Of a stretch of DNA of 64,000 nucleotides, positions 39,108-54,261 are shown piece by piece. Position 1 is the first letter of the stretch, and each line of letters starts with the position of its first letter. The DNA comes from an uncultured Acidimicrobiia bacterium (lineage in GTDB: Bacteria > Acidobacteriota > Terriglobia > Versatilivoradales > Versatilivoraceae). A program made the translations under genes and the position numbers. The notes beneath the pieces are model-generated. The model ran no database searches and had not been told where the DNA came from. It saw nothing but the letters and a program-made list of their open reading frames with translations. The stretch covers positions 832,001 through 896,000 of the forward strand of contig CAWBAT010000005.1 of NCBI GenBank assembly GCA_963786955.1, in the 5' to 3' direction.

Positions 39108-39224
39108 CGGGAACTCCTAATGTTGCGAAAGATGCGCGAACTAAGTAAAAGCCTGGGCGCGTCAGTCTGATCATGACTCCCCAGATTCTCAGACGCGACA
39201 TGAAAAATCTGGAAACTTAACCGG

Positions 39225-39659: not shown

Positions 39660-40247
39660 TTAGGTCTTCAAAATGGCGATGGCTTCAATTTCAACTAAGA
39701 GATCCTCGCGACAGAGCCTCGCCTGGATGCCAGTGCTCGCTGGCAGGGGATCCAGCCCCAACCACCTGAAAAAAGCCGTTCGGACTTGGTTGAATTCCTT
39801 ATAATCCCGTTCAATATCTCGCAAATAGCAGCTGCAGCGCACGATATCCTTCCAGGTAGCCCCTTCGGATCTTAGCAACGTCGTAATATTGCGGTACGTT
39901 CTCCAGCATTGAGCCCGGAAGTCACCTGCATGAACCGTTCGGCCCAGCTCATCCACACTGGCTGTGCCGGAAATAAGCAACATGGAAAACCCGTTCAAAT
40001 CGACTCGCATGCCTCGTGTGAAGGAGGACGGGATAGGATAGTCGTAAGCCTCATTGAGTACGCTAGGCGCCTGTATTGCGCGTTTCGGCACCAGATCCGC
40101 TTCGGCTCGCCTTAGAGAAAGAGGAGGCGGTTGTAGTTCGCCCGTTGGAGAAAGGATACCGAGGGCGTTGAGTTCTTCCCGTTGCGCAGGGGAGAGTATT
40201 TCTGGGGCAAAGACGTCATCCACGACTTCCTTGATATTTTGAATCAT
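39660..40247 (-). CDS. Rid-superfamily protein resembling the FkbO/Hyg5 chorismatase C-terminal domain
   Basis: PSSFTRG, ISGTASV, HAGD...Q, YLR, LCREDLLVEIEA. Confidence 0.75.
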   Translation of the reverse strand: MIQNIKEVVDDVFAPEILSPAQREELNALGILSPTGELQPPPLSLRRAEADLVPKRAIQAPSVLNEAYDYPIPSSFTRGMRVDLNGFSMLLISGTASVDELGRTVHAGDFRAQCWRTYRNITTLLRSEGATWKDIVRCSCYLRDIERDYKEFNQVRTAFFRWLGLDPLPASTGIQARLCREDLLVEIEAIAILKT

Positions 40248-40410
40248 TGTGACACTCCTGATTGATAATTTAGAATGCAGTGACCGAGAATGATATTTCC
40301 TACTGCCTATGAAAAATGAAAAAGCCTGCGGATATTTAAAATGCGATGCTCGTAATTTCGATTGGTTAATAGGCCCTCATGACGATAAGTTTTTGGCTCC
40401 ATGTGCGGTT

Positions 40411-41301
40411 TCAGGCTAAGGCGGCCGAGGTTTTTCGCTCCATAAGATCCTCTTCTTCGGTCTTTCCCATTTTGTGAATCTTATTCATCAATTTCTGAAA
40501 GGTAGCCGGACGGATCGCCTGGTCGGGGTCGCATCGCAGCTGTGACCTGGGAGTGCGAGCACCCATGACCTCAATGAGCAGGCCATCCGCTCCAAACCCG
40601 AGAGCTGCTTGGGCGGCCCACGGCACCATGTCCGCACGGCCGGTAGCGTGACTCGGATCTACAATGACCGGGAGATAAGTGGCTTCACGAACCGCTTTGA
40701 CAACACTCAAATCCAAACAGAACCGGGAATACTCCCCTGCCCCGAAAGAACGGATTCCTCGCTCACACAGTACGATCTGCGTGTTCCCTTCCTTGGCGAT
40801 GTATTCAGCAGCGCAAAGCCATTCTTGCAGTGTTGCCGCCATGCCTCTCTTCAACAACACAGGCTTGCCGAGCTTTCCTAACTCCGTTAACAGTGGGAAA
40901 CACTGCATGTTGCGGGAACCTACTTGCAGCATATCCACATAGCGACCAACAAGCTCTACCAGCCTGACGTCGAGGACTTCTGTGACAACGGGCAACCCAG
41001 TTTGTTCCCGCACTGCAGCAAGGATTTTCAGTCCTTCTTCACCAAGCCCTTGAAAATCGTAAGGCGAGGTCCGTGGCTTGAAGGCGCCCCCACGCAGCAT
41101 CTGCGCCCCACAGCTCTTTACCTCCAAGGCGATTTCCAGAGTCTGTTCGAGACTTTCCACCGTACAAGGGCCGGCAATGACTGCGGGTTGGCGGCCTCCA
41201 AAAGCCACCCCGGCGACAGACACAACTTTGCTCGCAGTCCCTATGGAGTACTTGCAGTCCCCGTTGCGACTGACGATTCGGTAAGCATTATGATTAGCCA
41301 T
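40411..41301 (-). CDS. aroF: Type I-beta DAHP synthase without regulatory domain
   Basis: [46 protein letters not shown]. Confidence 0.92.
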
Positions 41302-41599
41302 TTGCTTTTTAGCGCCCTATCCGAGTAGTACGTGCAGTTACTGGTTCTATTACTTACATCTTCGTAATCCAAGAAGTGTCACAGTAATGTCAACAAGACA
41401 CCGATCTATTGACCAGGATGTAAATATTCTCTAGACTTGAGCAATATTGGAGGCATCGGAGGAGTTGTAGATTGGGACCCCGTTTAAGACCCTCGAAGTC
41501 TGACGAAGCAAGGATCAAAAGGGATGCAGAAGGATGCTCCGTAGGCAGCTCGACACCAATTGATCCGACTTGCTTTAATCGATAGGAGAGAAAAATACA

Positions 41600-42079
41600 A
41601 TGAGTTTTGGCAAGCAGATCCTAAGGCTACGAATTCAGTCAAAGAAAACCCAGCAGGAAATTTCCCAGTTGACAGGGTTGGCCGTTTCATATCTGTCTAG
41701 ATTAGAAAACAACCACGTGACTCCTTCCATTCGAACTCTCTCCAAGATCTCAAAAGCGTTGAGTGTGCCGACATCAGTCTTCTTCGATTCCGAACCGGTA
41801 CTGGAAGAAAGCGACCGCTGTCCTGTCAGTACCTCAGGACAGTGTATCCTCGATCAAATGTTGGTCGCTCGCGGACGAAAACCCAATGGACACGGGGAGG
41901 GTTATTCACCTCATCAGCTGGAAGTCCTTCGTCAATGCAATTTTTTGCTCCACGAAGGAGACCGAGAAATCGTCGCTTCTCTCTCTACGATGATTAAGTC
42001 TTTGCTCGCACTCTCGATCTCCAAGAGCCGGAAACATAAATCCCTCGGGGCAAAGTATTCGCCGACACAAGGAAGATAA
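41600..42079 (+). CDS. XRE-family HTH regulator with Cys-containing C-terminal domain
   Basis: TQQEISQLTGLAVSYLSRLENNHVTPSI; RCPVSTSGQC...QC. Confidence 0.85.
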   Translation: MSFGKQILRLRIQSKKTQQEISQLTGLAVSYLSRLENNHVTPSIRTLSKISKALSVPTSVFFDSEPVLEESDRCPVSTSGQCILDQMLVARGRKPNGHGEGYSPHQLEVLRQCNFLLHEGDREIVASLSTMIKSLLALSISKSRKHKSLGAKYSPTQGR

Positions 42080-42597
42080 TGACAGAGGCGTATCATTGCT
42101 CAAGACGTAAGATGTCATCCTACGTTTTCCACCGCAAATACCTCGCACCCACCTTGACTCAGGGATTTGCAAAAATTGCGATTCTGCGATTTAGCTGCTG
42201 CGATTCTATCGCAGACCTCTTGTGATCCTCGATGGACCAGCTTAACGCGCCTATCAATCGAGACTGCCCGTTTGGTAATGCAGACGCGAGAAAAAGCGCA
42301 TCAACCGGCGTCTCAGAACTTTGCATCTCAACCTAAGAGTATCAATCTGGACTGGAGAATATTTCGCGACCGCTGCGTCAATTGAGCCAGTCCCTCCCTT
42401 CGGTATCTCGCACGATACATTAGTGTGACATTCAGAATTCAAACTGAAGGACTTAGCCATGCATTCAGCGTGGCAATCTGAATGCTCATTAGGAATTCGA
42501 ATATTGGATTGAAGGGATTGGTGTGTTGAAGGACACGAAGAGATTGACCGGATCCTAGGGGGTCTTATGGTAGTGCCGGTCGTATACTAGAATTGGC

Positions 42598-42627
42598 GGC
42601 ATGAGTGGGCCAATATGCCCTTTTTTT
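42598..42627 (+). terminator. Possible intrinsic terminator upstream of the HZS-like operon
   Basis: GGCAT/ATGCC stem followed by C and T7; weak stem. Confidence 0.4.
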
Positions 42628-42785
42628 ATGTCCACCTGTCGCGATCAAAGACGTCCACATCACCACCGATTGCTGGATTTCTTGATGGTTCTTCCACCGT
42701 ATAGGGGTCTGTCCAAATAACATTCTGGAACCTTTTCTCTTCGATCCTCAGCCTTCGGCCGAATTGCGTCAGGGGGCAATCTGCC

Positions 42786-44423
42786 ATGAAATCACAACTT
42801 TTGCTTGCCCTCGGTCTGGCATTCTGTGTCCTTTTGGCCGCAGGGACTTCCCAGCTTCCTGTCTATTTGGATGTCACCAAACAGGCCGGAATTGAATTTG
42901 ACCATTGCCTGGGCGCCAAGAAGATCAGCAACATTGTGGAGGCCACAGGGTCCGGCGCCGCATGGGTAGACTTTGACAAGGACGGGTGGCTGGACCTTTA
43001 TCTCGTCAACGGGTGTTACCTCGAAGGGGTCAGCGATCCGCGATCCCCATACAAAGGGAAAAAAATCACGGACCATTTGTACCGGAATAATGGGAATGGG
43101 ACCTTTTCCGATGTCACCGAGAAAGCCGGCCTCGGTGGCAAAGAGGATGGTTACGGGATGGCCGTTCAGGTCGGCGACTATGACAATGATGGATACCCGG
43201 ACTTGTATGTGACCAACTTTGGAGGCAATGTTCTCTATCACAACAATGGCAATGGTACTTTTACTGACGTGACCGAAAGAGCGGGAGTCGCTTGCAAGGG
43301 CCACTGGACCACGGGGGCAGCGTTCCTGGACTATGATAAGGACGGACTCTTGGACCTCTTTGTGGGAATCTATATCAAATTTGATGCCAGCTACCGACTC
43401 TACTATGAAGCCGACGTTTATCCCGGCCCGCTGGCGTATCCGGCGCAAAAGAGTTTTCTCTTCCACAACAATGGCAACGGAACTTTCACCGACGTCACCC
43501 AAAAAGCCAAAGTAGACAAGGAAGGCCGCGCAATGGGGGCTCTCACGGTTGACTACGATGACGATGGTTACCCCGATTTTTTTGTAGCCAACGACGCCAC
43601 CCCCAATCATCTCTTTCACAATGATCACGACGGAACATTTTCTGAAGTGGGCTTGCATGCAGCCGTCGCTTTCGGCCAAAACGGTAATGCGGCTGCTTCC
43701 ATGGGGGGAGACTGGGGCGATTTCGATCGGGATGGCCGGCTCGATCTGATCGTTCCAGCCATGAGTTACAACGCCCTCTACCGAAACCTGGGCAGGGGGC
43801 TCTTTGAAGATGTCGCCGTAGAAGCCGGGTTGGCCATCATCAGCGGCCAGTATTGGTCATGGGGAGGCAAATTCATTGATTACGACAATGACGGATACCT
43901 GGATGTCATGGTGGTCAATGGTGATGGGCACCGACTCACTGATACTCAGGAAGCCATTCTGGCGAGGAATGTAGCCGGCAGTGGCGGGAGTCGTGTCTTT
44001 CAAGATGTAGCCGCGGATTCAGGAGAATTCTTCCATCAAAAAATGGTCGCCCGAGGACTCGCGCTCGGTGACTATGACAATGATGGGGACATCGACGCCT
44101 TGATCTGTAATATCAACCAACCCGTGATTCTGCTTCGCAACGAGGGAGGGAACAGGAACAACTGGCTGCAGCTCAGCCTACAGGGTCGTAAAAGTAATCG
44201 CGATGCATTAGGTACCAAGGTGACCGTTAGAGCTGGAACCCTGCTGCAGTACGATGAAATGAAGAATGGCACGAGCTATCTTTCCGCCAACGACCCACGC
44301 ATGCACTTCGGCCTCGGGCAGGCCACGAAGGTAGACGAGGTAACCGTAAAATGGCCAAGTGGGGTGACCCAAAAATTCAAGGATGTGAAAATCAATCAAG
44401 TGCTCAAGTTCGTCGAACCCTAA
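42786..44423 (+). CDS. Secreted FG-GAP/ASPIC-UnbV (CRTAC1-like) protein
   Basis: Signal peptide; repeated DxDxDGxxDL and LYRNNGNGTFSDVT; C-terminal HFGLG...VKWPSG. Confidence 0.92.
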   Translation: MKSQLLLALGLAFCVLLAAGTSQLPVYLDVTKQAGIEFDHCLGAKKISNIVEATGSGAAWVDFDKDGWLDLYLVNGCYLEGVSDPRSPYKGKKITDHLYRNNGNGTFSDVTEKAGLGGKEDGYGMAVQVGDYDNDGYPDLYVTNFGGNVLYHNNGNGTFTDVTERAGVACKGHWTTGAAFLDYDKDGLLDLFVGIYIKFDASYRLYYEADVYPGPLAYPAQKSFLFHNNGNGTFTDVTQKAKVDKEGRAMGALTVDYDDDGYPDFFVANDATPNHLFHNDHDGTFSEVGLHAAVAFGQNGNAAASMGGDWGDFDRDGRLDLIVPAMSYNALYRNLGRGLFEDVAVEAGLAIISGQYWSWGGKFIDYDNDGYLDVMVVNGDGHRLTDTQEAILARNVAGSGGSRVFQDVAADSGEFFHQKMVARGLALGDYDNDGDIDALICNINQPVILLRNEGGNRNNWLQLSLQGRKSNRDALGTKVTVRAGTLLQYDEMKNGTSYLSANDPRMHFGLGQATKVDEVTVKWPSGVTQKFKDVKINQVLKFVEP

Positions 44424-45916
44424 AGATTGTGCTGTCGGTCGTTCTTGGGTCGGGCCTCTTGTTTTTTCAGGCGTTGCGTTCAGCGGTTTCTGAACCGCAA
44501 CGTTTCCCTTTGATCTTTACCCAGTTCGCTCATCGGACCGGAGTATCGACTCCTTCCAATCACCCCTTTCAAGGGCAGCTCTCACGCCCCGAGGGCAGTC
44601 GCTTGGTATTGATGTCATCCTCCGGCAAGCTCAAAGTTCTCACCCCTGAATTGGCGGCAGCCGCAGAAGCTTCGATTTCCTTCGACGGCAAGAAGGTGTT
44701 GTTTTCCGGGAAACGACTTGCTCAGGACAACTGGGACATCTGGGAAATGGAAGTGGATGGGCAGAACAAACATCAGATTACCCACCAGCTTAAAGACTGC
44801 GGAGAACCTCATTATCTGGCCATGAGCGCTCTCAATTATCCCGAATATGACGAAAAGGTCCGTTGGATCACATTTACCTCGACCGCCGCAGGGACCTACG
44901 AAGAATGGGGACCCGCCCTGGCTACGTCCCTCTATGTGCAGAATCTTGATCCCATCATGGGGCGCGGGGTTGTCACTTGGCGAATTACTTTCAATCTGTC
45001 GAGCGATTTTTCTCCCACTGTTCTCCATGATGGGCGAACCCTCTTTACCAGCCATCAGATGGGGGACCGCAAACAAAATTCAGTGGGTCGCTTTCTGTTG
45101 CTGGCTTCCAATTGGGACGGCACCGGATTGAACCTGTTTTGCGGGGATGAGCAGGGTCATCGCATGAAGACCATGGCGTGCGAGATGCCCGACCGGACAT
45201 TGGTTTTCGTGGATTCCGATGGGAATACACCGGATGGCAGCGGGGAGTTAGCTCGCGTCTCATTTCGTCGCCCTTTGCACAGCTATGAGCCACTCAGCAA
45301 AGGAGAGGGGCGCTATCGTAATCCCCAAAGTCTGCCCGACGGTTCTCTGCTTGTTTCCTACGCCACGGGAGAAAATGCCTACGGGCTCTACTTTTTCGAT
45401 TTCGACAAGAAGTGCCCGGGCCGGAAAATTTTTGGTGATTCGAAGTGGGAAGCTGTCCAAGCAGTTCCTGTGTTGCCCACCGTTGAGCCGACAGGCTTGA
45501 TCAGTGCTGTTTATGACGAGCAGACTGCCGGAGACCTGCAGTGCCTGAACGTTTATGATTCTGACCGACCCGAGGCGTCTGACATCCGAAAAGGGGAGGT
45601 GAAACAAGTCCGCTTGGTCCAAGGGATTCCATCCCTGACAGCTTCCTCATCCCCGGAAACGCGTATCCTGGGGGAAGCCCCGGTGGAATCGGATGGTTCT
45701 TTTTTTGTGCGGGTTCCGGCTGACATCCCGTTTTACATCCAAACCCTAAACGCCCAAGGGCAGCCACTACAGACGATGCACCGATGGATATGGGTCCGCA
45801 AGGGGACGAGCCGAAGCTGCATCGGCTGCCATGAGGATAAGGAACTGGCTCCCGAAAACAGGATCACCGAGGCACTTCTCAAGGCGAAGCCCCATCCGGT
45901 GGGGTTAAAGCGTTGA
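44351..45916 (+). CDS. Hydrazine synthase alpha-subunit-like heme protein
   Basis: PEGSRLVL, LKVLT, IWEM.VDG, ITFNLSSDFSP, NWDG, YRNP..LPD..LVSYA, VESDGS, RSCIGCH; true start may be GTG at 44429. Confidence 0.85.
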   Translation: MAKWGDPKIQGCENQSSAQVRRTLKIVLSVVLGSGLLFFQALRSAVSEPQRFPLIFTQFAHRTGVSTPSNHPFQGQLSRPEGSRLVLMSSSGKLKVLTPELAAAAEASISFDGKKVLFSGKRLAQDNWDIWEMEVDGQNKHQITHQLKDCGEPHYLAMSALNYPEYDEKVRWITFTSTAAGTYEEWGPALATSLYVQNLDPIMGRGVVTWRITFNLSSDFSPTVLHDGRTLFTSHQMGDRKQNSVGRFLLLASNWDGTGLNLFCGDEQGHRMKTMACEMPDRTLVFVDSDGNTPDGSGELARVSFRRPLHSYEPLSKGEGRYRNPQSLPDGSLLVSYATGENAYGLYFFDFDKKCPGRKIFGDSKWEAVQAVPVLPTVEPTGLISAVYDEQTAGDLQCLNVYDSDRPEASDIRKGEVKQVRLVQGIPSLTASSSPETRILGEAPVESDGSFFVRVPADIPFYIQTLNAQGQPLQTMHRWIWVRKGTSRSCIGCHEDKELAPENRITEALLKAKPHPVGLKR

Positions 45917-45992
45917 GTTGGAGGATTTGGAGAGCAATGTTGCTGCTTGTCAAGAGAGAACAGATTTTCAGTAAGGGTGGAGGAGTAATTCA

Positions 45993-48548
45993 TTGGCAGC
46001 TCACAAAATGCAGAACCTGGCCGTGATTGCAGGCATCCTCGTTCTGCTCACTTCACTCAGCTTGTCCATGAACTCTGGGCAGTGCGCCTTGGATGGCGGC
46101 AAGCGCAGCCTGTACGCCGTGCCTGAAGATGATCAATATAAATCGCCGATTCAATTGGCCATAAGTAAAGATGGGCAGCGTCTTTTTGTCGCTTGCGAAA
46201 ACAGTAACGAAGTCCTTGTGATCGATATCCGGCAGAACCGGGTTATTCAAAACATCAAGGTGGGGAAACACCCCTTCGGCGTGACGCTCGATCCTGACGA
46301 GAAGAAACTCTATGTCAGCAACCGATGGGATAATTCCTTGACCGTGATTAGCCTGACTTTGCTCGTTGCGGAAAAGACAGTTCCCATCGGGAATGACCCT
46401 CATCAAATGCGGACCGATGCCTCCGGGAAAGTCCTATACGTCAGTAATCTGACCACTCGTGATATCTCGGTGGTGGACACAGCCACGATGCAGGAGACTA
46501 AACGACTGGATGCAGGAGTCTCGCCCTTCGGTATCAGCTTGTCTCCTGACGGAAAATTTCTCTATGCCACCAATCAGTTGTCGAGCCCCGTACCTTTCCG
46601 TAGCGCTCCAGTAACGGAGCTGACGATCGTGGATACAGCCAGCCAGCTCGTAACGGGACGACTGCGGCTGGTATCCACCGTCATTGCCCAGGATGTGGCA
46701 GTCACTCCAGACAGCCAGTTTGCCGTGATCGCCGTCGAAATGCCCAAGAATCTGCTGCCTGAGACTCAGATTTATCAGGGCTGGATGGTCACCCATGGTT
46801 TCGCAATAGCGGAAGCGGGGCCCCGTGGCCGGCTGGCCTACTTCCTGCTTGACGAACCGAATCTTTATTATGCTGATGCTTACGGAGTGGCCATCTCGCC
46901 GGATGGACATCGTCTTTACATCTCATCGAGCGGCGTGGATGTGATTTCCGTCGTCAATCTGGACAAAATTTATGAGCTGCTCAAAGTCAAAGACGGCAAG
47001 ATTGGAATCCCCGATGAAACCATTAAGCTGTATGCCCGGCATCTGGCGCTAAGTTCCGAGTATGTTCAAGCAAGGATTCCAACTGGCAGTAATCCCAAGG
47101 ATATCATCCTCTCCCCGGATGGGAGCCGTCTCTACGTAGCCAACCGTCTATCCGACACTATCCTCATTGTGGACACCAAGTCGAATAAGCCGGCCGGGAC
47201 CATTGAACTGGGTGGCCCTCGTCTGGAGACCGAGCTTCGCAAGGGAGAGAAGCTTTTCAATTACAGCAGCATCAGCTTTCAGAAACAGTTGAGCTGCAAC
47301 ACGTGCCACCCCGAGTATCATCTGGACGGGTTGACCTATGACATTGTCGCGCCAAGCGATCCCATCGGGCAAAACCTGGTCGACAACCGGACGATGCGCG
47401 GTATCGCCTACACCGGCCCCTTTAAGTGGAATGGGAAAAACCCCTCTTTAGCGCGGCAAGATGGGCCTCGCGCAGCTCAATTGTTCTTCAGGTCGCATGG
47501 CTTCGATCCCACTCAGTTGCAGCAAATCGTCAAGTTTGTCGAATCGCTGGGTATCCATCCCAGCCGCTTTCTAGCAGCCGCCGGCACCTTTACCGATCAA
47601 CAGGACGAAGGAAGGATTCTATTTGAGAGGGCGTTTGTCAGATCAGGCCCTCTGGCGGGACGGTATATTCCAGTCGGCAATCGTTGTATCAGTTGCCACC
47701 AGCCTCCCTTCTATACAGACCATGATGTGCACAACGTCGGGACCCAATCCTATACCGATGCCGAGGATGTAGTTGACACTCCGCAGCTCAGCAATGTGTA
47801 TGAAAACGCTCCATTCCTGCATGATGGACGTTGTTACAGTCTGGAAGAAATCTGGACCGTCCACAACCCGGATGACATGCATGGAGCCACCAATGGTTCC
47901 ATGGACAAGCGTGAGTTAAATTCTCTGATTGAATTCTTGAAAACCTTGTCGGCCCGTGAGCCTATGCCCGACAAGGAATTCCTGGAAACCACTTTCCCGA
48001 AGGGGACAGAGAAATCGAATCCATTTTATGTGGAGGGTCTGGTCAATCCGGTCAAACCTGATCTGCGATACCTGGGCAACAAAGCCTGTGCCGAATGCCA
48101 TGTGAAGGAGTACAAGGCCTGGCTTGGCAGTGGACATGCCCGGACCTGGGTCATGCTTGGCTCACGAAATGCCACATTGGTTGGCCAGCAACTGGGTATC
48201 AAGAACTCAAACCTTCAATACAACGTCAAGTGTCTGATGTGCCATGGAACAGCTGCCGATGTCGTCACAGATTCCCGGGCCGCTAATTTCCACATCGAGG
48301 AAGGGGTGAAATGCGAGTCTTGCCACGGCCCCGGCGAAGAGCACACATTGTTTATGAAGCAGAATCCCAAGGGGCCCATGGGAAAATTGAAAATGCCAAC
48401 CCCTGAAGATTGCCTAGTCTGTCATAGGCCGAAGCCTTCCCATGCCCAGCTGAAAAAGGACCCCTTCGATCTCGACACTGACATGAAGAAGATCTCGCAT
48501 TGGAAAGAAAAAATAGCGCCGCGATCTGCTCATGGATCGGGCATGTAG
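45993..48548 (+). CDS. Fused hydrazine synthase beta/gamma-like protein with C-terminal c554-type tetraheme domain
   Basis: YncE-type propeller (PKNLLP, ARIPTG); CcP/MauG-like diheme (CNTCH, CISCH, DTPQL, HDG, DMHG); then CAECH, CLMCH, CESCH, CLVCH. Confidence 0.87.
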   Translation: MAAHKMQNLAVIAGILVLLTSLSLSMNSGQCALDGGKRSLYAVPEDDQYKSPIQLAISKDGQRLFVACENSNEVLVIDIRQNRVIQNIKVGKHPFGVTLDPDEKKLYVSNRWDNSLTVISLTLLVAEKTVPIGNDPHQMRTDASGKVLYVSNLTTRDISVVDTATMQETKRLDAGVSPFGISLSPDGKFLYATNQLSSPVPFRSAPVTELTIVDTASQLVTGRLRLVSTVIAQDVAVTPDSQFAVIAVEMPKNLLPETQIYQGWMVTHGFAIAEAGPRGRLAYFLLDEPNLYYADAYGVAISPDGHRLYISSSGVDVISVVNLDKIYELLKVKDGKIGIPDETIKLYARHLALSSEYVQARIPTGSNPKDIILSPDGSRLYVANRLSDTILIVDTKSNKPAGTIELGGPRLETELRKGEKLFNYSSISFQKQLSCNTCHPEYHLDGLTYDIVAPSDPIGQNLVDNRTMRGIAYTGPFKWNGKNPSLARQDGPRAAQLFFRSHGFDPTQLQQIVKFVESLGIHPSRFLAAAGTFTDQQDEGRILFERAFVRSGPLAGRYIPVGNRCISCHQPPFYTDHDVHNVGTQSYTDAEDVVDTPQLSNVYENAPFLHDGRCYSLEEIWTVHNPDDMHGATNGSMDKRELNSLIEFLKTLSAREPMPDKEFLETTFPKGTEKSNPFYVEGLVNPVKPDLRYLGNKACAECHVKEYKAWLGSGHARTWVMLGSRNATLVGQQLGIKNSNLQYNVKCLMCHGTAADVVTDSRAANFHIEEGVKCESCHGPGEEHTLFMKQNPKGPMGKLKMPTPEDCLVCHRPKPSHAQLKKDPFDLDTDMKKISHWKEKIAPRSAHGSGM

Positions 48549-48640
48549 TCCTTATGCTTCTCATGAGTCTCTATCCTCGGGAGAAGAGGGGACGGTTTTT
48601 ACATCACCGGAAGTAGTTTCTAAATTCTTATTGTTTTCGC

Positions 48641-49840
48641 TTGGAGGCAATAATGAAAAGCAGGACACGAGTCATATTAATTTCCTTGTTTTGGCTGATC
48701 TCTTCTTTTGGCATTTTGGGGATGCCACCGTCCAATACGGCTGAGCAAGCCCCCGCTAGAGCTGAAAAGGAAGAATGGCCTCGGGTCTACACAGAGTGGC
48801 AATCTTTCCACAGCGAGGATGGTCTTCCTTCCAACAAAGTTTATGCTGTCGCCGTGGATGGTGATCGCGTCTGGTTTGGAACTGATAACGGTTTGGCTTT
48901 GTATGAACAGGGAAAATGGACCACATTTGGCGTTGAGGATGGTTTGGCCTATCCCGCCGTTCTCTGCCTGGCGGTCGATCCGGTTACTCGCGACCTGTGG
49001 GCCGGGACGATGAAAGGATTGTCGCATTTCTCCGCAGGTAAATTCGAAAGCTTCACCCAATTCAACAGCGGACTCCCCAACGATGTGGTGTTTGGGGTTT
49101 GCGTGGAAAACCAGAACGTCTGGATCGCTACGACGGCCGGCACCGCTCGCTTTCATACGCACGAGAAGACCTGGGATGTTTATACACCCGCCAATTCCCC
49201 GCAACATGAGCCCTGGGGCTATTTCGTCACTTACGCAGACGGAAAGGTTTATGCCGCTCTTTGGGGTGGCGGAGTATTGGAATTCGATATCGCAACCCAG
49301 GGATGGAAGGCCTGGCGGGATCCGGACGGCGAGATGGAAGTGGATGTATTTCGAGATGATGGACTCATCCACGTGATTACGACTAGCGTCAGCTACGTGG
49401 AGAAGATTCTCTGGGTGTCTACTTATTTTGGCATGAGCCGCTATGACGGCCGTCATTGGCGGGGATATATTGAAGGTGATTCAGGATTGCCCAGCAATTT
49501 CATCAATATGGTCAAAGCCCGAAATAATGTCGCCTGGGTTTGCACGGATCGTGGCTTGGGCACCGTCAATGGCGATACGAACCGCTGGGTGAGCTACGCC
49601 CCTGTTGATCCGCTCTGGGCAAAGCAAAAAAGTCCCGCAGGGGTTCAAGACCCGATCGAGGGAAACCAAGGTTGGGAAGCAAAGATCTTTAATGACAGCA
49701 AGCTCATTAAAACGGTGAAACTGGAACACGGACTTGCCAACAATCACATCTATGGCGTCGATTTTCAGGGAGAGGATATCTGGGTAGCGACCTCCAAGGG
49801 AGTAAGTCATGCCACTTGGAGAGAAGGAGGTGCTCAGTGA
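48641..49840 (+). CDS. Secreted beta-propeller protein (two-component regulator propeller-type repeats)
   Basis: Repeats GLPSNKV, GLPNDVV, GLPSNFI, GLANNHI followed by W.GT..GL-like strands; no kinase domain. Confidence 0.85.
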   Translation: MEAIMKSRTRVILISLFWLISSFGILGMPPSNTAEQAPARAEKEEWPRVYTEWQSFHSEDGLPSNKVYAVAVDGDRVWFGTDNGLALYEQGKWTTFGVEDGLAYPAVLCLAVDPVTRDLWAGTMKGLSHFSAGKFESFTQFNSGLPNDVVFGVCVENQNVWIATTAGTARFHTHEKTWDVYTPANSPQHEPWGYFVTYADGKVYAALWGGGVLEFDIATQGWKAWRDPDGEMEVDVFRDDGLIHVITTSVSYVEKILWVSTYFGMSRYDGRHWRGYIEGDSGLPSNFINMVKARNNVAWVCTDRGLGTVNGDTNRWVSYAPVDPLWAKQKSPAGVQDPIEGNQGWEAKIFNDSKLIKTVKLEHGLANNHIYGVDFQGEDIWVATSKGVSHATWREGGAQ

Positions 49841-51223
49841 AATCGAAGATCTTGTTCAGCTGGTTCGGTATTGATGGCAGTCATGATTATTGCAGGCCTC
49901 ATTCCGGTTGCCGAAGAAAAAAAATTGCCTTCAAGCGATACTGGAACTGCCGGGAACGCGGCAACCGCTTCCTCCTCGGCCGAACAGTCCCCGGAGCCCA
50001 AGAAAAAGGAACTCTATGGCAACATGCCGGAAGATCTTGAGCCATTTGGCAAATTTGTGAAAGAGCCCTACAAGAAATATTTCGTGCCCAGTGATGCAGC
50101 GATCACTTTTTGGGGACCCGGGCGCGAAAAATCCGAACCTGAAGTGGATACTGTAAAGATTGGGTTGCTGGCCCCGGTAGAGCGTAGCCACGAAACTTAT
50201 ATGGGCCGCTCGATATTGAACGGAATGACCCTTGCGCTTGAAGAAGCCAACGCCGCAGGAGGATATAAAGGAAAGCCATTTGAGGCCGTGGTGAAAAACG
50301 ACTCCGGTTTGTGGGGGGCCTCCGCCAATGAAATCATCAACTTTACTTACGAAGAAAAAGTCTGGGCTGTCATTGGTACTGTGGATGGGGCCAACAGCCA
50401 CATTGCCATTCGTGTGGCTCTGCGCACCGATATCCCGATGATGAACGTGGCTGACCTTGACCCGACCTTGATGGAAACGCGCATCCCCTGGGTTTTTCGC
50501 AATGTCCAGGACGACCGGCAAATGGCCTACACGATTGCCTATTACGTCTACAAACAGTTGGGGTTTAACAAAGTGGCCATTCTGCGCGCCAATAATCGCT
50601 ACGGCCGTTTTGGTGTGGCCCAATTTCGAAAAGCCTCCATCCGGCTGAGCAAACCTGCCCCGATCGAAGTCAATTATGAGATCAACTACGATCAGGTCAA
50701 CCTGGATTTCATCACTCAGATGAGTCGTCTCAAAGAAGCAAATCCGGACGGAATTATCCTCTGGGCGGACCCTGTACCGGCAGGCCTACTCGTAAAGAAG
50801 ATTCGGGAAATGGGAATGAGCATTCCCGTCGTTGCCTGCGAACGGATCCTCAACCCTGCTTTCATCAGGGAAGCCGGGCCAGCCGCCGAAGGGGTGGTGG
50901 CTACGTCGCCATTCAATTCTGAGTCCGGAGAGTCCGAAGTTCGTCGAATTCAAGAAGAAGTACAAGGCACACTTCGCAGCGACCCTGATATGTATGCGGC
51001 TTATTCTTATGATGGAACTAACATGGTCATTGCTGCCATCCATAAAGCCGGCTTGAATCGATATCGCATCCGTGACGAAATGACGTTGCAGCAAGATTGG
51101 GAAGGAGTCACTGGAATCTGCCATTATGACGATGTGTTCACGAATCGTTCACCCGTCACCGTGGCCACCGTAAAAAATGGCAAATGGGTCTATGGCATCC
51201 CCAAATTGGAGCATGTCTTTTGA
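49837..51223 (+). CDS. LivJ-type (type I periplasmic) substrate-binding protein
   Basis: VKIGLLAP, ALEEANAAGG, AAYSYDG, EGVTG; GTGA coupling with the upstream gene; indels near the start and at about 50930-50980. Confidence 0.85.
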
Positions 51224-51225
51224 TC

Positions 51226-52448
51226 ATGAACAGTTTGTATTCCACATTGGTATGTCTGCTCGTATTGGCGGCCGCGCCGCAGGCACCTTATCTCGATTTT
51301 TCACATGCTGGGGCTGGGTTCTATGGAAGCGGCAGGGAAATCCCAGAACCGATAGACCTCACTTCAGTCAGGATCGGGGTGCTGGGGCCCGAAACGAGTC
51401 CCGAGGGGAGGCAGATGCGGTCCGCTATCCAAATGGCTATCGATGAAGCCAATGCGCGCGGCGGTTACGGGTTAAAAGTCCAGCTCCTTAGAGCATCTCC
51501 ATATGGCGAAAAATCTCCCTGTTCCGAGGAGGCTCGGGTGATTCCGTACGAAATGGTTTTTCGCCCCGACGATGGCCCCTGGGGGACAGCCACCAGCCAG
51601 GTTGTCAAATTCGCCTATGAAGACAGGGTCTGGACGATCATCGGTGGACTCGATGGCCAACGAACACATATCGCCGAATTGGTCGTGACTAAAGCCTGGG
51701 TACCGGTTATCAGCCCCGGGACGACCGATTCCACTGTTGACTACGCCAACGTCCCCTGGGTTTTCCGGGCCGTCCCCGCCGACAGCCGACAGGCCGACGC
51801 TTTGCTGGCCTTTGCCAACAAACAAGGCTATAGCCGACTGGTCGTCCTGTCTGAAATAGAAAGAGAATCCTATGCCAGTTTCAAGCGATTGAGTGAAAGT
51901 GCGCGGCATGGGCATACTACATTTGCGATGCATTTGGATTATCCGCCGGAAAATCCGGTGGCCGTCATTCCTCAACTGCAGGGTATTTCGTTCGATGCCG
52001 CCGTGATTTGGGGAAGGGGAGAGACCGCCATGCCGCTCATCGAAGGGTTGCGCCGAGCCGGCATTCAGGTACCCATCCTGGCTTGTTCGGCATTGGCTAC
52101 GCCGGAAGTGGCAAAGAAACAGCCTGTGTTGGGAAATCTGACAGTCGTGGCCCCGTATGATTTAAGCCGTCACGATTTTGAGCTGGAGAACTTCCAGCGA
52201 CGATATGAATCTCAAACCGGAACCCGGGCAGGGCCGCTGGCGGTTTATTCTTATGATGTGGCTCGGCTCGTCATCGGTGCCATAGAAAAGCAGGGCTCAA
52301 TCGAGCACTCATTCGAGATGAGCTGGCGGGAACTAGGTTTAACGGCCTCGCAGGACCTTATCGGTTCAGTTGCTTGGGAGGCAATGAGGCTGATCCCGTG
52401 CTGATGACACTTCAAGAAAACGGTTGGAGCCGAATTCAGGGCTTCTAA
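51226..52448 (+). CDS. Second LivJ-type substrate-binding protein (3' frameshift)
   Basis: VRIGVLGP, AIDEANARGG, VPWVFR, YSYDVA; C-terminus continues in another frame to TAA at 52448. Confidence 0.82.
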
Positions 52449-52585
52449 ATCCTGCGAAAGCGCCATTTGTCCTCAGGCTAAAAACCAACAGAAACTCCCC
52501 CCAGTAGCCACTTAAGACAAACTTAGCCTGACTCTTCACTCAGCCGAGATTCATTCTCTTTTAAATGGAAGCGGGTACTAGTGGC

Positions 52586-53368
52586 TTAGTGGAGGACCTT
52601 TCCTGTGCGAGACCAACGGGTCTTGGATATGAAGTGAGCCACTACCGATGCATACTCCTGCACGTACTCGGTAATCGACTTTGGACGAGGATCATACGGA
52701 GGCGCTTCATACGACCAATAAATAAAGAGTGGTTTGCCAATGATATTCTTCCCATTGACTACGCCCCAGTATCGACTGTCATTACTATTATCTCGGTTGT
52801 CTCCCATCATGAAATAGCTGTCCGGGGGTATCGCGATCGGGCCGAAGTTATCTCTGACAATATAATCGTCAGGAATACCTGAATCGCGTTCGTAGATCTT
52901 CGAGTCGATAAAGTGTTTGTAGGACTCCTTTAGCTCCGCCCCGTTGATGTAGACCCTTTTGTCTCGAATCTCCAATGTTTCGCCGGGTAATCCAATGACT
53001 CTTTTGATGAACGGAATTTTCGGGTTCTCCGGGGATTTGAATGCCACGATTTCTCCTCGACCGATCGTTCGGGTCGGCAAAATTCTGAGGAGCATTTCCG
53101 GGTAATTTGCAGGGAACGCAAACTTATCCAGGAAAAAATGATCGCCCACCAGAATCGTTGGCTTCATGGATTCCGTGGGAACTTGCGTGGCTTGGGCGAT
53201 GAAATTCGTGAAGAAGAAAACAAAAATTAAGCTAAACACCAGACTTTCCAGCCACTCTCGCGCGGCGCTCTTCCCACGCGGTGGGGATGGCAGAGTCTGG
53301 TTGAGATCTGAGTCGGGATCCAAATTTTGAGTTGGCACTAAATCTTCTTTATTCCTTCTAAGAAACAT
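52586..53368 (-). CDS. lepB: Signal peptidase I
   Basis: PTESMKPT, FIKRVIGLPG, MGDNRDNSNDSRYWG. Confidence 0.95.
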   Translation of the reverse strand: MFLRRNKEDLVPTQNLDPDSDLNQTLPSPPRGKSAAREWLESLVFSLIFVFFFTNFIAQATQVPTESMKPTILVGDHFFLDKFAFPANYPEMLLRILPTRTIGRGEIVAFKSPENPKIPFIKRVIGLPGETLEIRDKRVYINGAELKESYKHFIDSKIYERDSGIPDDYIVRDNFGPIAIPPDSYFMMGDNRDNSNDSRYWGVVNGKNIIGKPLFIYWSYEAPPYDPRPKSITEYVQEYASVVAHFISKTRWSRTGKVLH

Positions 53369-53762
53369 ATTTACTCCAAGTCCGCAATGGCCGCCACTGC
53401 TCCATTAAGATCTTTTCACCTGGGGAAGTTTCATGCCCAGCCCGATAATTCTAGCATGGTCGTGCAAGATTAGGGAACAGACAGCACGGTTGCACGGGGA
53501 AATAATGTTTTGATTCAAGAGACTTCCCTAAGCAGCCGCTATCCAGTAGCGCTTGGATCGGTTTCGACATCTCAAGCTCTCAAGACTCCTCCATTTCATC
53601 AATTTAATCACTTATTTTCAATCTGTTTGGCAGTCCAATAATGGATCGCGCGTATGGGCTTCCGCTCCCGAGGCGCTCCAGCGTGTGTCGACTCACTCGG
53701 TCCATCTCTCCGCCGGCAGCTCGAAGTTGCATGAATGGAATGATGAAAGGGAGTCCTTAGCA

Positions 53763-54261
53763 TCAAGCTTCATGACATGAGCCGGATCCGACATTCTTTA
53801 ACAAGGTAGAGATCGTATTGCGGAAGGTCGGATGGAGGAGGTCTGGCGCTAGGGTCACCAACGGTTCAAGGACAAAACGACGCAAATGCATGCGCGGATG
53901 GGGGATCTGAACCTCTGGTAAATTCAGGATGATCTGATCATAAAGCAGGACATCGATATCAATCAGGCGCGGACCCCGGGGAATCCGTCGTTCCCTTCCC
54001 AATTCGGATTCTACCTCTAGACAGAAATCGAGCAACTCTTCTGGCCCTGCATGAGCCCCTACCTGCAAGACCTGATTGAGAAACCAATCCTGGTCCTTCA
54101 TAATCCACCGGTTCCGTGTGATACAGGACGGAAGCTTTTTTAATTGGAGTCCCTTTAAGGAAGAGTTTTTCGCGGGCGCGTTTCAGGTTTTCTGCCTTAT
54201 CCCCCAGGTTAGAGCCAAGAGAGAGGAATGCTTGATGTGGAGAAACAAGGACATCACTCAT
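53763..54261 (-). CDS. folK: HPPK (folate synthesis), frameshifted
   Basis: LSLGSNLGD, FLNQV, GPRLIDIDVL, PHPRMHLRRFVL. Confidence 0.92.

Follow-up and report, generated by a model that had tools for sequence, protein, structure and literature searches.

Does a row of genes resembling those of anammox hydrazine synthase (HZS) encode that enzyme in a bacterium outside the anammox group, or a relative with another task? The question is raised by six co-directional ORFs on the + strand at positions 42786-52404 of the window, i.e., of the whole stretch of 64,000 nucleotides that was analysed. The host had been predicted to be non-anammox and probably a member of the Acidobacteriota. This is supported by the best RuvB matches, which are Acidobacteriota MAGs (76, 67 and 66% identical), and the nearest relatives of the cassette in the tree are also Acidobacteriota.

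Layout of the cassette

The six ORFs are tightly packed, as had been claimed: the intergenic distances are, in ORF order, -73, 76, 92, 30 and -40 nt. The two overlaps are probably due to over-long start calls. Translation of the HzsA-like ORF (521 aa) probably begins at a GTG in position 44429 (codon 27); a database protein of 495 aa (P0007), 99% identical, agrees with this start. Pfam and NCBIfam matches give the domain order of the original prediction. The features of the cassette and of its surroundings are:

39660..40247, - strand: RidA-like protein of 195 aa whose N-terminal extension of 70 residues is conserved (Pfam Ribonuc_L-PSP 61.2 bits)
40411..41301, - strand: class I-beta DAHP synthase, 296 aa, without N-terminal regulatory domain (NF006421 376.2 bits, cut-off 335)
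41600..42079, + strand: XRE-type HTH regulator, 706 nt upstream of the cassette (Pfam HTH_3 49.9 bits)
42786..44423, + strand: FG-GAP/UnbV_ASPIC (CRTAC1-like) propeller, exported, 545 aa (Pfam FG-GAP_3 176.7 bits in 5 stretches; UnbV_ASPIC 85.7)
44351..45916, + strand: short HzsA-like protein made up of a propeller and an HZS_alpha middle domain, with a single c-haem motif (Pfam HZS_alpha 79 bits, cut-off 26.6)
45993..48548, + strand: HzsB-HzsC-c554 fusion of 851 aa whose N-terminus resembles a signal peptide (6 CxxCH; YVTN/lactonase propeller, CCP_MauG, Cytochrome_C554)
46134..47186, + strand: HzsB-like seven-bladed YVTN propeller domain of the fusion, residues ~48-398 (single-stretch alignment to 5c2v_B)
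47226..47957, + strand: HzsC-like, i.e., CcP/MauG-like, dihaem domain of the fusion, residues ~412-655 (CCP_MauG 36.5 bits, cut-off 25.6; 5c2v_C)
48060..48482, + strand: tetrahaem cytochrome c554-like C-terminal module of the fusion, 4 CxxCH (Pfam Cytochrome_C554 52 bits; PDB 1bvb 3.5e-4)
48641..49840, + strand: Reg_prop beta-propeller, exported, 399 aa (Pfam Reg_prop 50.9 bits)
49871..51223, + strand: LivJ-type binding protein 1, 450 aa (Peripla_BP_6 132.4 bits)
51184..52404, + strand: LivJ-type binding protein 2, 406 aa (Peripla_BP_6 85.7 bits)

The count of seven CxxCH motifs is exact: one in the HzsA-like protein (CIGCH, residue 490) and six in the fusion (residues 435, 565, 699, 747, 774 and 807). 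N-terminal export signals had been attributed to all six products. Judged solely from hydrophobic N-terminal stretches of the translations, five ORFs, that of the ASPIC protein included, have what looks like a signal peptide. Binding protein 1 has a short hydrophobic N-terminus without charged start, and its export signal is doubtful. The XRE-type HTH protein may be a local regulator of the cassette; none of 31 related loci holds a homologue, thus it is not a conserved member.

Relation to hydrazine synthase

The likeness to HzsA, HzsB and HzsC exceeds the generic level, since these are the best matches in NCBIfam, in PDB sequences and by Foldseek, with generic paralogues behind. For the HzsA-like protein, 5c2v_A is the sole PDB sequence match (E 3.8e-47; 8.3e-73 with the family profile). 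Foldseek with its AF2 model places 5c2v_D/A at the top (E 3e-31, TM 0.55, 28% identity) and TolB second (E 1e-9); the model is mediocre (pLDDT 68.6, and below 50 in the haem region 483-503). Residues 50-395 of the fusion align in one stretch with residues 13-349 (of 352) of 5c2v_B (E 1.4e-40), so that the predicted collinearity with HzsB extends over nearly the whole subunit. The whole fusion matches 5c2v_C with E 5.1e-13; the dihaem domain searched alone gives 1.5e-14, vs. 2.2e-4 for the best cytochrome c peroxidase. Membership of the hydrazine-synthase lineage, as originally proposed, is supported by these specific matches.

A true hydrazine synthase is nevertheless rejected. The four NCBIfam Hzs equivalog models all remain far below their cut-offs: (i) hydrazine_alpha, 193.6 bits for the HzsA-like protein (cut-off 800, E 4.2e-57); (ii) hydrazine_beta, 168.2 bits for the fusion (cut-off 560, E 2.7e-49); (iii) the beta-gamma fusion model, 163.3 bits (cut-off 1250, E 6.7e-48); (iv) the gamma model, 56.5 bits (cut-off 625, E 2.1e-15). 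Nor are the defining residues of either HZS active site conserved. The domain carrying haem alphaII in HZS is absent from the HzsA-like protein with its one CxxCH. Ser590/Tyr591 of HzsA, i.e., the Ser-Tyr found after CxxCH in all five aligned anammox HzsA, face a two-residue gap. Since the Tyr is missing, the lone haem probably keeps ordinary His ligation (His494). The column of alphaCys303 is ambiguous: phmmer aligns Cys264 there, whereas the profile and MAFFT set it 3 residues off; Cys264 is kept in 11/20 family members.

The dihaem domain carries CNTCH at 435, Trp479, Asp490, CISCH at 565 and His630. The column of gammaHis144 is occupied by Trp in 21/21 family members, that of gammaCys165 by Asp (12/21, the window protein included) or Glu (9/21) and that of gammaAsp168 by Ala; the anammox-specific inserts are missing. 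Because these residues are not conserved, HZS-type chemistry is unlikely for the cassette proteins, and the N-N or N-O reaction suggested earlier is hypothetical. Neither is the cassette a hydrazine synthase nor its host an anammox bacterium.

In a tree of 52 rows, all 10 HzsA of anammox bacteria group together (support 100) on a stem of length 1.24, and the window protein lies within a separate 30-row clade (support 98). The novelty implied by the original prediction was overstated: the same architecture is described as clade III of the hydrazine-synthase homologues in PMC12758564 (Genome Biol Evol, Dec 2025). According to that description, clade III has alpha upstream of a fused beta-gamma, an FG-GAP/CRTAC1 gene upstream and two binding-protein genes downstream; it is without haem alphaII and has the same residue differences as the window proteins. 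Judged from the paper's description, the window cassette fits clade III. Three points are new: (i) of 14 further genomes of the phylum with the alpha-like gene, 13 have the complete cassette; (ii) the Reg_prop propeller is a constant member; (iii) the cassette has as linked neighbours, variously arranged, genes for a RidA-like protein lacking the usual Arg and for a DAHP synthase without regulatory domain.

Conservation of the cassette and its neighbours

Conservation of the gene set elsewhere, which had been put forward as a test, is found at dozens of loci in several phyla. Among the 31 related loci, many of which are interrupted by contig ends, homologues are present for ASPIC at 27, HzsBC-like at 23, Reg_prop at 19 and the binding proteins at 15. 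Within the phylum the alpha-like gene occurs in 15 of 401 sampled genomes. All 14 other carriers have the ASPIC gene and the fusion, and 13 of them have Reg_prop and both binding proteins as well. Orthologous genes stand in the same order at loci of Acidobacteriota, Latescibacterota, Gemmatimonadota, Fibrobacterota and Poribacteria. The cassette, whose exported haem proteins are distant cousins of HZS, is real and conserved widely. At other loci the c554 module is either a separate gene directly after the fusion or a doubled N-terminal module.

The Reg_prop protein is conserved about as well as the other cassette proteins or better: at Latescibacterota loci it reaches 59-62% identity, vs. 45% for the alpha-like protein. 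Its alignment (A2) has 57% mean column identity. Its AF2 model (pLDDT 83.7) has the BT3049/BT4663 sensor propellers as best fold matches (E 5e-14). The best PDB matches of binding protein 1 are amino-acid binders (4.7e-23), with aromatic-acid binders from 1.9e-12, and it adjoins no transporter gene. Binding protein 2 has weak PDB matches (best 1.3e-7) and is the less conserved of the pair (36-55% identity with homologues at related loci).

In the window the RidA-like and DAHP synthase genes (39660-41301) are divergent from the cassette; both products lack a signal peptide and are therefore presumably cytoplasmic. The DAHP synthase covers profile positions 70-335 of 338 in NF006421; the window's genome (G000), with only 4 RidA-family and 2 DAHP synthase genes, also codes for a full-length DAHP synthase (481.9 bits) and KdsA. 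The RidA-like protein stays under the family cut-offs (Rid 49.6 vs. 106.25; FkbO/Hyg5 chorismatase 37.2 vs. 325), and alignments to 2dyy, 1qd9 and 9bjv show Ser in place of the conserved RidA Arg. Linkage to the cassette is seen for the RidA-like gene at 10/31 and 9/14 loci (19/45) and for the DAHP synthase at 9/31 and 4/14 (13/45). These genes are non-obligatory partners, since they are missing near the cassette at 26 and 32 of the 45 loci, respectively (both at 23). There are at least four arrangements, some with insertion between cassette genes (L025, L027, L028, L135, L136 and L138). The RidA-like forms of ~390 aa are borderline for FkbO_Hyg5-like_N (29.6 and 24.1 bits, cut-off 27), match chorismatase model positions 55-308 of 311 (E 3.9e-13) and are named in an ESM Atlas look-up as RidA family only.

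Function of the haem complex

Considered as a whole, it is highly probable that the cassette belongs to a widespread family of HZS homologues that are predicted to form a periplasmic haem complex other than HZS. The enzyme is most likely periplasmic, fed by c554, with two haem sites and a small substrate. The complex, the electron path and the two-site mechanism are drawn by analogy. From homology to 5C2V and gene linkage, the alpha-like and beta-gamma-like proteins would form a periplasmic complex with two haem sites. The c554 module would be the point of electron entry towards the second haem of the gamma-like domain; an invariant His in the shared D-x-H-G motif makes bis-His ligation of this haem probable. 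From there electrons would pass by way of the invariant Trp, a route known from cytochrome c peroxidase and MauG, and reach the first haem, the catalytic one. The lone alpha-like haem would probably be a second reaction or binding site. The constant pair of orphan binding proteins, together with the linked RidA-like protein and DAHP synthase, points to an amino-acid-like or chorismate-derived small molecule as substrate, rather than to NO and ammonium only. Binding protein 1 resembles amino-acid and aromatic-acid binders alike and thus names no ligand.

The dihaem domain is a CCP_MauG member, and a dedicated tetrahaem electron-input module is always present at the compared loci. Both would suit a respiratory or protective system of peroxidase or NO-reducing type, in which the c554-fed CcP-like domain acts in the periplasm to reduce H2O2 or some other small oxidant, and the extra DAHP synthase and RidA-like protein, under common regulation with it, back up cytoplasmic steps that are sensitive to stress. 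In E. coli, CcP allows respiration with H2O2, and peroxide and superoxide are known to act on DAHP synthase. The inter-haem Trp of cytochrome c peroxidases and MauG is kept in 21/21 members (cf. PMC12758564). However, this reading leaves unexplained the alpha-like haem protein, the two extra propellers and the two binding proteins, all of them constant members. The second haem ligand is probably His, not the classical Met: His630 is invariant, whereas position 629 holds T in 10, L in 8, M in 2 and A in 1 of 21 members. The dihaem domain is also ten orders of magnitude nearer to HzsC than to any peroxidase. Such a system is rather improbable.

It is also doubtful, to a similar degree, that the RidA-like protein and DAHP synthase make a chorismate-derived aromatic which serves as substrate, cosubstrate or redox mediator of the haem complex and is held by the binding proteins. 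The DAHP synthase is an extra paralogue without allosteric domain, and dedicated shikimate supply by such enzymes occurs in biosynthetic clusters. The conserved Arg of RidA serves imine deaminase activity, against which its replacement by Ser argues. The insertions between cassette genes at six loci, the chorismatase-like long forms and the aromatic-acid matches of binding protein 1 agree with this reading, but the chorismatase scores are 37-49 bits for a cut-off of 325, the window RidA-like protein has half the chorismatase length, the Atlas names no chorismatase for the long form, both genes are often missing and no exporter is conserved at the loci.

It is unlikely that the cassette encodes a system that modifies proteins in the manner of MauG, or a quinoprotein-like dehydrogenase of amines or amino acids. 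The dihaem domain would here oxidise either residues of one of the propeller proteins, thereby building a protein-derived cofactor, or a ligand brought by the binding proteins. TTQ/CTQ amine dehydrogenases combine a propeller with a dihaem cytochrome and a MauG-like enzyme, a parts list that the cassette resembles. The MauG-type Trp is kept, the highly conserved Reg_prop protein has many invariant Trp, Tyr and Asp, and the binding proteins are closest to amino-acid binders. Yet the loci contain no small cofactor-bearing subunit and no conserved radical-SAM or flavoprotein maturase, and the Reg_prop fold resembles sensor-domain propellers only. The NCBIfam matches of the fusion to QH_beta (2.2e-8) and TTQ_mauG (6.3e-7) fall far short of the cut-offs and are surpassed by the Hzs matches.

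That the cassette is a genuine divergent hydrazine synthase, in an organism with cryptic anammox, is very improbable. This is the reading given in PMC11828985 to HzsA-like genes of ten phyla, i.e., Acidobacteriota and nine others; the same source reports transcription of such genes in Acidobacteriota, together with complexes predicted for other clades. Homologues of all three subunits do lie next to each other, and the catalytic-haem CxxCH of the alpha-like and gamma-like parts are invariant in the family. Against it stand the small equivalog scores, the missing Tyr591, haem alphaII and gamma residues, and the long stem of the separate anammox clade; PMC12758564, in its account of the family, reaches the same negative conclusion. 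The absence of HAO/hydrazine dehydrogenase and nitrite reductase genes from the window is confirmed. In the genome (93% complete) PF13447 (HAO family) has no match, a null result without positive control, as the 14 control genomes give none either; 11 multihaem frames have at least 8 CxxCH, and none of the 6 scanned is HAO-like. Neither NirK nor NrfA is found above cut-off in the genome. A 381-aa frame elsewhere in the genome (C6:444102-445052) attains the Pfam cut-off for Cytochrom_D1 if the scores of its stretches are added up (36.3 bits) and may be a NirS/NirF-like propeller candidate.

That generic propellers, cytochromes and binding proteins without common function lie together by chance is conceivable in that propeller, CcP and LivJ-type proteins form very large families (47131 library matches of the fusion with E <= 0.001). 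This is ruled out by the recurrence of the orthologous gene set and order across five phyla, and the tight gene spacing also speaks against it.

Gene content of the cassette and likeness to hydrazine synthase

In the ORF listing of the window, six ORFs of the + strand span 42786-52404. According to Pfam, the product of ORF 1 contains FG-GAP_3 and UnbV_ASPIC (ASPIC protein). The product of ORF 2 (alpha-like protein) has HZS_alpha as its sole match (79 bits, residues 424-495), above the gathering cut-off of PF18582 (26.6 bits). ORF 3 encodes an 851-aa beta-gamma fusion, i.e., a YVTN propeller, a CCP_MauG dihaem domain and a Cytochrome_C554 domain. ORF 4 encodes a Reg_prop propeller, and ORFs 5 and 6 encode Peripla_BP_6 binding proteins 1 and 2. 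The successive gaps between the ORFs are −73, 76, 92, 30 and −40 nt, and later start codons would remove both overlaps. The database protein P0007 (495 aa) is 99% identical to the product of ORF 2 and fits a GTG start at codon 27.

The cassette contains exactly 7 CxxCH motifs, one in the alpha-like protein and six in the fusion. The dihaem domain is over the cut-off of PF03150 (36.5 vs. 25.6 bits), with CNTCH at 435, CISCH at 565 and an invariant Trp479. The c554 module is over that of PF13435 (52 vs. 20.8 bits), with CxxCH at 699, 747, 774 and 807. Gene order and number of motifs agree with the original prediction, as judged by ORF, Pfam, NCBIfam and motif count. That prediction also placed export signals on all six proteins: this holds for five of them, the N-termini of which resemble signal peptides when judged by eye, while the N-terminus of binding protein 1 is short and uncharged. 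At 49841-49900, the ORF of binding protein 1 is in frame with the Reg_prop gene, directly past its stop, and the in-frame residues preceding its first start codon include two Arg. This protein may have lost its signal-peptide start or may use a non-standard start.

An Rfam search of 39000-54000 returned no RNA element. The counts of promoter-like sites (8 against 8.9 expected) and of terminator-like sites (16 against 11.7) do not exceed those of shuffles; therefore no operon boundaries are claimed from them.

Among PDB sequences the alpha-like protein matches only 5c2v_A, the alpha chain of the Kuenenia stuttgartiensis hydrazine synthase (HZS), in three collinear stretches (3.8e-47). A profile built from 20 family members finds the same chain at 8.3e-73 and no second PDB match. 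The top NCBIfam model is hydrazine_alpha (4.2e-57). The AF2 model is mediocre (pLDDT 68.6); Foldseek with this model returns 5c2v_D/A first (E 3e-31, TM 0.55) and TolB next (1e-9). The best NCBIfam models for the fusion are hydrazine_beta (2.7e-49) and the beta-gamma fusion (6.7e-48), with hydrazine_gamma at 2.1e-15 for its dihaem part. The fusion covers residues 13-349 of the 352 of 5c2v_B in a single alignment stretch (1.4e-40). The dihaem part searched alone matches HzsC (5c2v_C) at 1.5e-14 vs. 2.2e-4 for the best cytochrome c peroxidase. The likeness of the alpha-like and fusion proteins to HZS is specific. The assignment to the HZS lineage is thus upheld by the top matches in NCBIfam, PDB sequences and Foldseek; generic YncE, CcP or PD40 proteins as best matches, the contrary outcome, were not seen in the sequence and Foldseek searches.

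As in HZS, all three subunit types are present and collinear: an alpha propeller plus HZS_alpha middle domain with a c-haem, a seven-bladed YVTN beta propeller, and a dihaem CcP/MauG-like gamma domain with a D-x-H-G motif. Compared with their anammox counterparts, the alpha part is 26-30%, the beta part 25-30% and the gamma part 25-27% identical. Scalindua likewise has a fused beta-gamma protein. The cassette differs from HZS in that: (i) the alpha gene stands before the beta-gamma gene; (ii) a c554 module, two more propellers and a pair of binding proteins are added; (iii) its proteins have ordinary signal peptides.

An alpha-type tree of 52 rows was built by a quick method with a midpoint root. 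Rows with <380 aligned residues (loci L007, L035, L036 and L138) and the anammox loci L153 and L202 were left out. The 10 anammox HzsA group together in a single clade (support 100), the stem of which is 1.24 changes per column long. The tree shows the window protein in a separate, non-anammox clade of 30 rows (support 98), nearest to two Acidobacteriota loci (63% identity). This clade is the apparent sister of anammox HzsA (support 94), a placement that is not claimed from a quick, midpoint-rooted tree. The top matches of the RuvB of the window are Acidobacteriota MAGs at 76, 67 and 66%, Nitrospinota being next at 65%. On the basis of this single marker and of the Acidobacteriota neighbours on the alpha-type tree, the host is probably an Acidobacteriota, as had been guessed from the DNA.

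Active-site tests against hydrazine synthase

The NCBIfam equivalog cut-offs are 800 bits for alpha, 560 for beta, 625 for gamma and 1250 for the beta-gamma fusion. The cassette scores 193.6, 168.2, 56.5 and 163.3 bits, respectively, i.e., below all of them, and a search of the whole genome (G000) found nothing above the alpha equivalog cut-off. Anammox hzs loci were retrieved by a primer pattern, then aligned with the window proteins and their relatives.

In the passages of PMC12607021 and PMC12758564 on the alpha subunit, Tyr591 is the proximal ligand of haem alphaI, four residues past the His of CxxCH, and His587 binds zinc. Anammox HzsA (806-832 aa) has two CxxCH; the motif CxGCH-x-G-S-Y is found in 5 of the 5 aligned sequences, and the second CxxCH lies ~100 residues further on. 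The alpha-like protein (521 aa) has one, at residue 490. The window protein and its relatives read CIGCHEDK--ELAPEN, with a 2-residue gap exactly at Ser590/Tyr591; no Tyr is found at the Tyr591 column in the window protein or its 7 aligned relatives. The alpha-like proteins end soon past the CxxCH, with no second haem motif and thus no haem alphaII. The alphaCys303 column is ambiguous: phmmer places Cys264 there, and the profile and MAFFT are 3 residues off. Cys264 is retained in 11 of 20 family members, and alphaCys303 is also missing from the Scalindua and Anammoxibacter rows of the alignment.

The pocket of haem gammaI in HZS comprises His144, Cys165, which makes a third covalent link, and Asp168 close to the iron, according to parts of PMC12758564 and PMC12607021. 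In the gamma-like domain, the anammox FRHEG, 10-residue insert and RVCG-RDPG become FKWN and RQ(D/E)GPRAA. The gammaHis144 column holds Trp (Trp479 in the window) in all 21 family members, the gammaCys165 column holds Asp in 12 and Glu in 9 of the 21 (Asp/Glu490), and the gammaAsp168 column holds Ala. The insert which follows His144 in anammox proteins is missing from the window domain. The Glu of the beta-subunit loop reaching into the tunnel is described as not conserved in HZS homologues in a passage of PMC12758564.

Judged by its residues, the cassette is not a hydrazine synthase. The active-site differences would also make N-N or N-O chemistry less likely.

Conservation of the cassette, published relatives and linked genes

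At least 527 alpha-like proteins are found at E 1e-5 or better (8000 candidates scored), and PF18582 is present in 120 of 120 of the matches listed. The fusion has 1403 library representatives at E 1e-30 or better, many of which are long multi-repeat propeller proteins and not Hzs-like fusions. An alignment-based scan gave 31 related loci from named MAGs; a single-protein scan gave 2. These loci belong to Acidobacteriota/Terriglobia, Latescibacterota, Gemmatimonadota, Fibrobacterota, Poribacteria, Holophagae and Thermoanaerobaculia. The same genes are found in the same order, with a minority of loci having ASPIC between alpha and beta-gamma. Homologues are present for ASPIC (27 of the 31), the HzsBC-like protein (23), Reg_prop (19) and the binding proteins (15), many loci being cut by contig ends. 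The c554 module is either fused as in the window or encoded by a separate gene directly behind the fusion.

Of 401 genomes sampled evenly from the phylum, 15, the genome of the window included, have the alpha-like gene (E 1e-30 or better). ASPIC and the fusion adjoin it in all 14 other carriers, and Reg_prop with both binding proteins in 13, the fourteenth being cut by a contig end. In most of the 14 the fusion is of a longer type that carries two N-terminal c554 modules, which matches clade I as described in the text of PMC12758564. Conservation of the neighbourhood, named at the outset as a check, is found in both sets. From this comparison of gene content, the constant unit is a six-protein, predicted exported set with a dedicated tetrahaem input, and not alpha plus beta-gamma alone.

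A search of G000 found no second cassette copy. In one Acidobacteriota MAG, two contigs (L008 and L009) each have a full copy, behind which lie a RidA-like and a DAHP synthase gene belonging to that copy; their alpha-like proteins are 62-63% identical to that of the window. At three loci (L016:18079-21549, L026:4373-8104 and L010:14962-16338) a second, much larger protein flanks the cassette (1156-1243 aa where complete). That of L016 has TPR, FG-GAP and UnbV_ASPIC on Pfam, and the copies of L026 and L010 are ASPIC-like blastp matches. A histidine kinase and a sigma-54-dependent response regulator lie near the cassette in about four loci each (L028:15037-16542, L029:756-2147) and may control it in those lineages.

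For a long time hydrazine synthase was regarded as having no relatives, and where it came from has been an open question. In the parts of Hagglund et al. (Genome Biol Evol 2025, PMC12758564) that bear on gene clusters, four clades of HZS homologues have co-located alpha and fused beta-gamma genes, with an FG-GAP/CRTAC1 gene between them in clades I and II and upstream in clade III, and two binding-protein genes downstream. The same residue losses are reported there, the homologues are judged not to be anammox enzymes and no function is proposed. Paludibaculum fermentans, Syntrophobacter fumaroxidans and Opitutus terrae are named there among cultured organisms with a related cassette. Clade III as described there shares with the cassette: (i) alpha upstream of the fused beta-gamma and FG-GAP/CRTAC1 upstream of alpha; (ii) two ABC-type binding-protein genes downstream; (iii) an alpha without its last ~100 residues and haem alphaII; (iv) the 2-residue gap at Ser590/Tyr591 and the Trp for gammaHis144. 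Clade III fusions are described with one extra haem motif, whereas the window fusion has four, in a C-terminal c554 module. By this description the cassette fits clade III. Systems of this kind were published in December 2025, and the window adds a new member in which c554 is fused at the C-terminus. A Reg_prop propeller, RidA-like, DAHP synthase, chorism-, two-component or Acidobacteria are not mentioned in the main text of PMC12758564; its figures or supplements may show them.

In Phycisphaerae UBA1845, a passage of PMC10732223 places an hzsA-like gene immediately upstream of a fused hzsBC-like gene and suggests a broader enzyme family; bit scores against Kuenenia are 89-163, the same range as for the cassette. 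HzsA-like genes with Sec signal peptides and a C-terminal helix are reported from cold-seep MAGs of ten phyla, including Acidobacteriota, Fibrobacterota and Gemmatimonadota, in a part of PMC11828985. Both read such genes as possible anammox potential in these passages, which the residue tests of the cassette oppose; the propeller, binding-protein, RidA-like and DAHP-synthase genes around them are not taken up there. The homologue family is present in non-anammox phyla of sediment and soil, and is counted towards anammox potential in some metagenomic surveys. The residue-level tests made here show why such counts are unsafe. A search of the open-access literature and bioRxiv found no characterised function for any HZS homologue.

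Two further genes lie upstream of the cassette:

40411-41301, opposite strand to the cassette: DAHP synthase
39660-40247, opposite strand to the cassette: RidA-like gene

A RidA-like homologue is linked to the cassette in 10 of the 31 loci and 9 of the 14 phylum loci, and a DAHP synthase homologue in 9 and 4, respectively. At least four arrangements are seen, among them: (i) both downstream and co-directional with the cassette; (ii) both upstream; (iii) the RidA-like gene inserted either after Reg_prop, ahead of binding protein 1, or in the gap separating both binding-protein genes; (iv) the DAHP synthase gene in that latter gap. Since G000 has few such genes (four of the RidA family, two DAHP synthases and one KdsA), chance adjacency within 20 kb would amount to some 1-2% per locus. 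What is new here is how far the conserved cassette extends, together with its linkage to an extra DAHP synthase and a RidA-like gene.

Proposed function and genome context

By analogy with 5C2V, the alpha-like and beta-gamma-like proteins would form a periplasmic complex, with the c554 module as the entry of electrons. The second haem of the gamma-like domain would be bis-His ligated by the invariant His630 of the D-x-H-G motif common to HzsC. Electrons would then cross the invariant Trp479 to the first haem, as in peroxidases and MauG, and the invariant acidic residue (Asp/Glu490) would be near the first-haem site. The alpha-like haem would be an ordinary His-ligated one, flanked by the invariant Arg483, Arg488, Glu495 and Glu498. 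A general two-site haem oxidoreductase is the best explanation of the cassette.

A system reducing peroxide or NO is unlikely. Like dihaem cytochrome c peroxidases and MauG, the gamma-like domain has two c-haems in two lobes with an invariant Trp between them; it differs in being far closer to HzsC than to any solved peroxidase, in sharing a chain with a propeller and a c554 module, and in that its second haem probably has His as distal ligand, and not Met or Tyr.

The linked genes bring in a second alternative, a system acting on a chorismate-derived compound that they would make. The DAHP synthase is over its cut-offs (NF006421, 376.2 vs. 335 bits; TIGR01361, class I-beta, 340.9 vs. 267.75 bits) and does not have the first ~69 profile positions, which are present in the other, 341-aa copy of G000. 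Pairs of a DAHP synthase and a chorismatase of the FkbO/Hyg5/XanB2 type occur in biosynthetic gene clusters. In both cases an extra DAHP synthase without regulatory domain is found beside a RidA-fold protein. The window protein differs in that it has one RidA domain plus a 70-residue extension, and no polyketide or assembly genes are linked. This N-terminal extension is conserved in orthologues (the alignments start at residue 1), and the protein has no signal peptide. The conserved active-site Arg of RidA has a catalytic role; in the RidA-like protein, Ser is aligned to this Arg of 2dyy, 1qd9 and 9bjv, and the score is below the Rid family cut-off (TIGR00004, 49.6 vs. 106.25 bits). At some loci a ~390-aa form with borderline matches to the FkbO/Hyg5 N-domain replaces it, and weak matches of the long forms cover most of the chorismatase model. 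The cut-off of chorismatase TIGR04444 (325 bits) is reached neither by the window protein (37.2 bits) nor by the 396-aa form of locus L025 (49.4 bits). In the ESM Atlas the 396-aa form matches only RidA-family clusters; in one of these, 12% of the members have the chorismatase N-domain, which is a lead and not evidence. An action on a chorismate-derived compound is, like peroxide or NO reduction, of low probability.

A broader reading, quite unlikely as a whole, takes the cassette as a self-contained periplasmic machine (four propellers, seven haems and two binding proteins). It would perform undescribed redox chemistry (e.g., C-N, N-N, N-O or oxidative coupling) on an amino-acid-like or chorismate-derived metabolite, which the cell would supply via its own DAHP synthase without regulatory domain and an Arg-less chorismatase-like RidA-fold enzyme. 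If this reading were true, anammox HZS would descend from such an enzyme, stripped down and re-tooled.

In the PDB, binding protein 1 matches amino-acid binders first (4.7e-23) and aromatic-acid binders from 1.9e-12, and binding protein 2 has weak matches only. The AF2 model of Reg_prop is confident (pLDDT 83.7) and matches only sensor-domain and generic propellers, no enzyme-like fold being found in this structure search. A complex prediction for the alpha-like protein (residues 50-521, alignment A1) with ASPIC (24-545, alignment A3) returned no verdict (score 0.00, mark 0.32). The six-protein set and its linked genes sharpen the search for the ancestral chemistry behind hydrazine synthesis.

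A MauG-like or amine-dehydrogenase-like system is decidedly improbable. A true hydrazine synthase, in spite of the specific likeness, is contradicted by the residues of both haem pockets and can practically be set aside.

The cassette lies in a 5.65-Mb assembly of 9 contigs, 93% complete (G000). PF13447 (HAO family) has no match there; 14 control genomes are likewise unmatched, so this search lacks a positive control. Six of the 11 frames with at least 8 CxxCH were scanned in this 93%-complete genome and none is HAO-like, and neither NirK nor NrfA is over cut-off in G000. In total, 30 frames have at least 3 CxxCH and 11 at least 8, one of them having 19. Multihaem-rich frames outside the window include C5:655564-657432, C4:838062-840893 and C3:190742-195733 (contigs C3-C5 of G000). 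Extracellular electron transfer is suggested by one frame that encodes a decahaem protein of the OmcA/MtrC family (535.4 bits) and by several that are DmsE-like. On contig C6, a YVTN-type propeller frame of 381-398 aa (C6:444102-445052) is the closest paralogue that the HzsB-like propeller has in G000; this frame reaches the Cytochrom_D1 cut-off only with its stretches summed (36.3 bits).

At least 20 sequencing runs contain part of the window, and contigs of four (X1, X19, X20 and X21) were compared. In X20, an estuary metatranscriptome, short contigs are near-identical to parts of all six cassette genes. Two of them match the alpha-like gene without a single difference over 151 and 248 bases, and another (48494-48745) runs from the last part of the fusion gene into the first part of Reg_prop. 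This is a weak hint of transcription and co-transcription of the cassette, as DNA can occur in RNA libraries. In X1, a sediment DNA run, 29 of 30 bins are covered by contigs 90-99% alike. In X19, 24 of 28 contigs are 90-95% alike and probably come from relatives. X21 yielded no contigs.

It must be noticed that positions 1-33000 of the window (e.g., 18983-20011 and 22460-23650) are poor in long ORFs, with 8 of at least 250 aa in 33 kb. Some ORFs there look shortened, e.g., that of a lactate permease covers only positions 1-203 of a 522-position profile. One-base differences from a related DNA run are frequent in 49862-52548. Short ORFs and one-base differences point to frameshifts, pseudogenes or assembly indels. 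Near the start of the window (1327-3305 and 9150-10091), ORFs for an enoyl-ACP-reductase-like SDR, a radical SAM protein and a type III polyketide-synthase-like protein may form a small lipid or polyketide locus.
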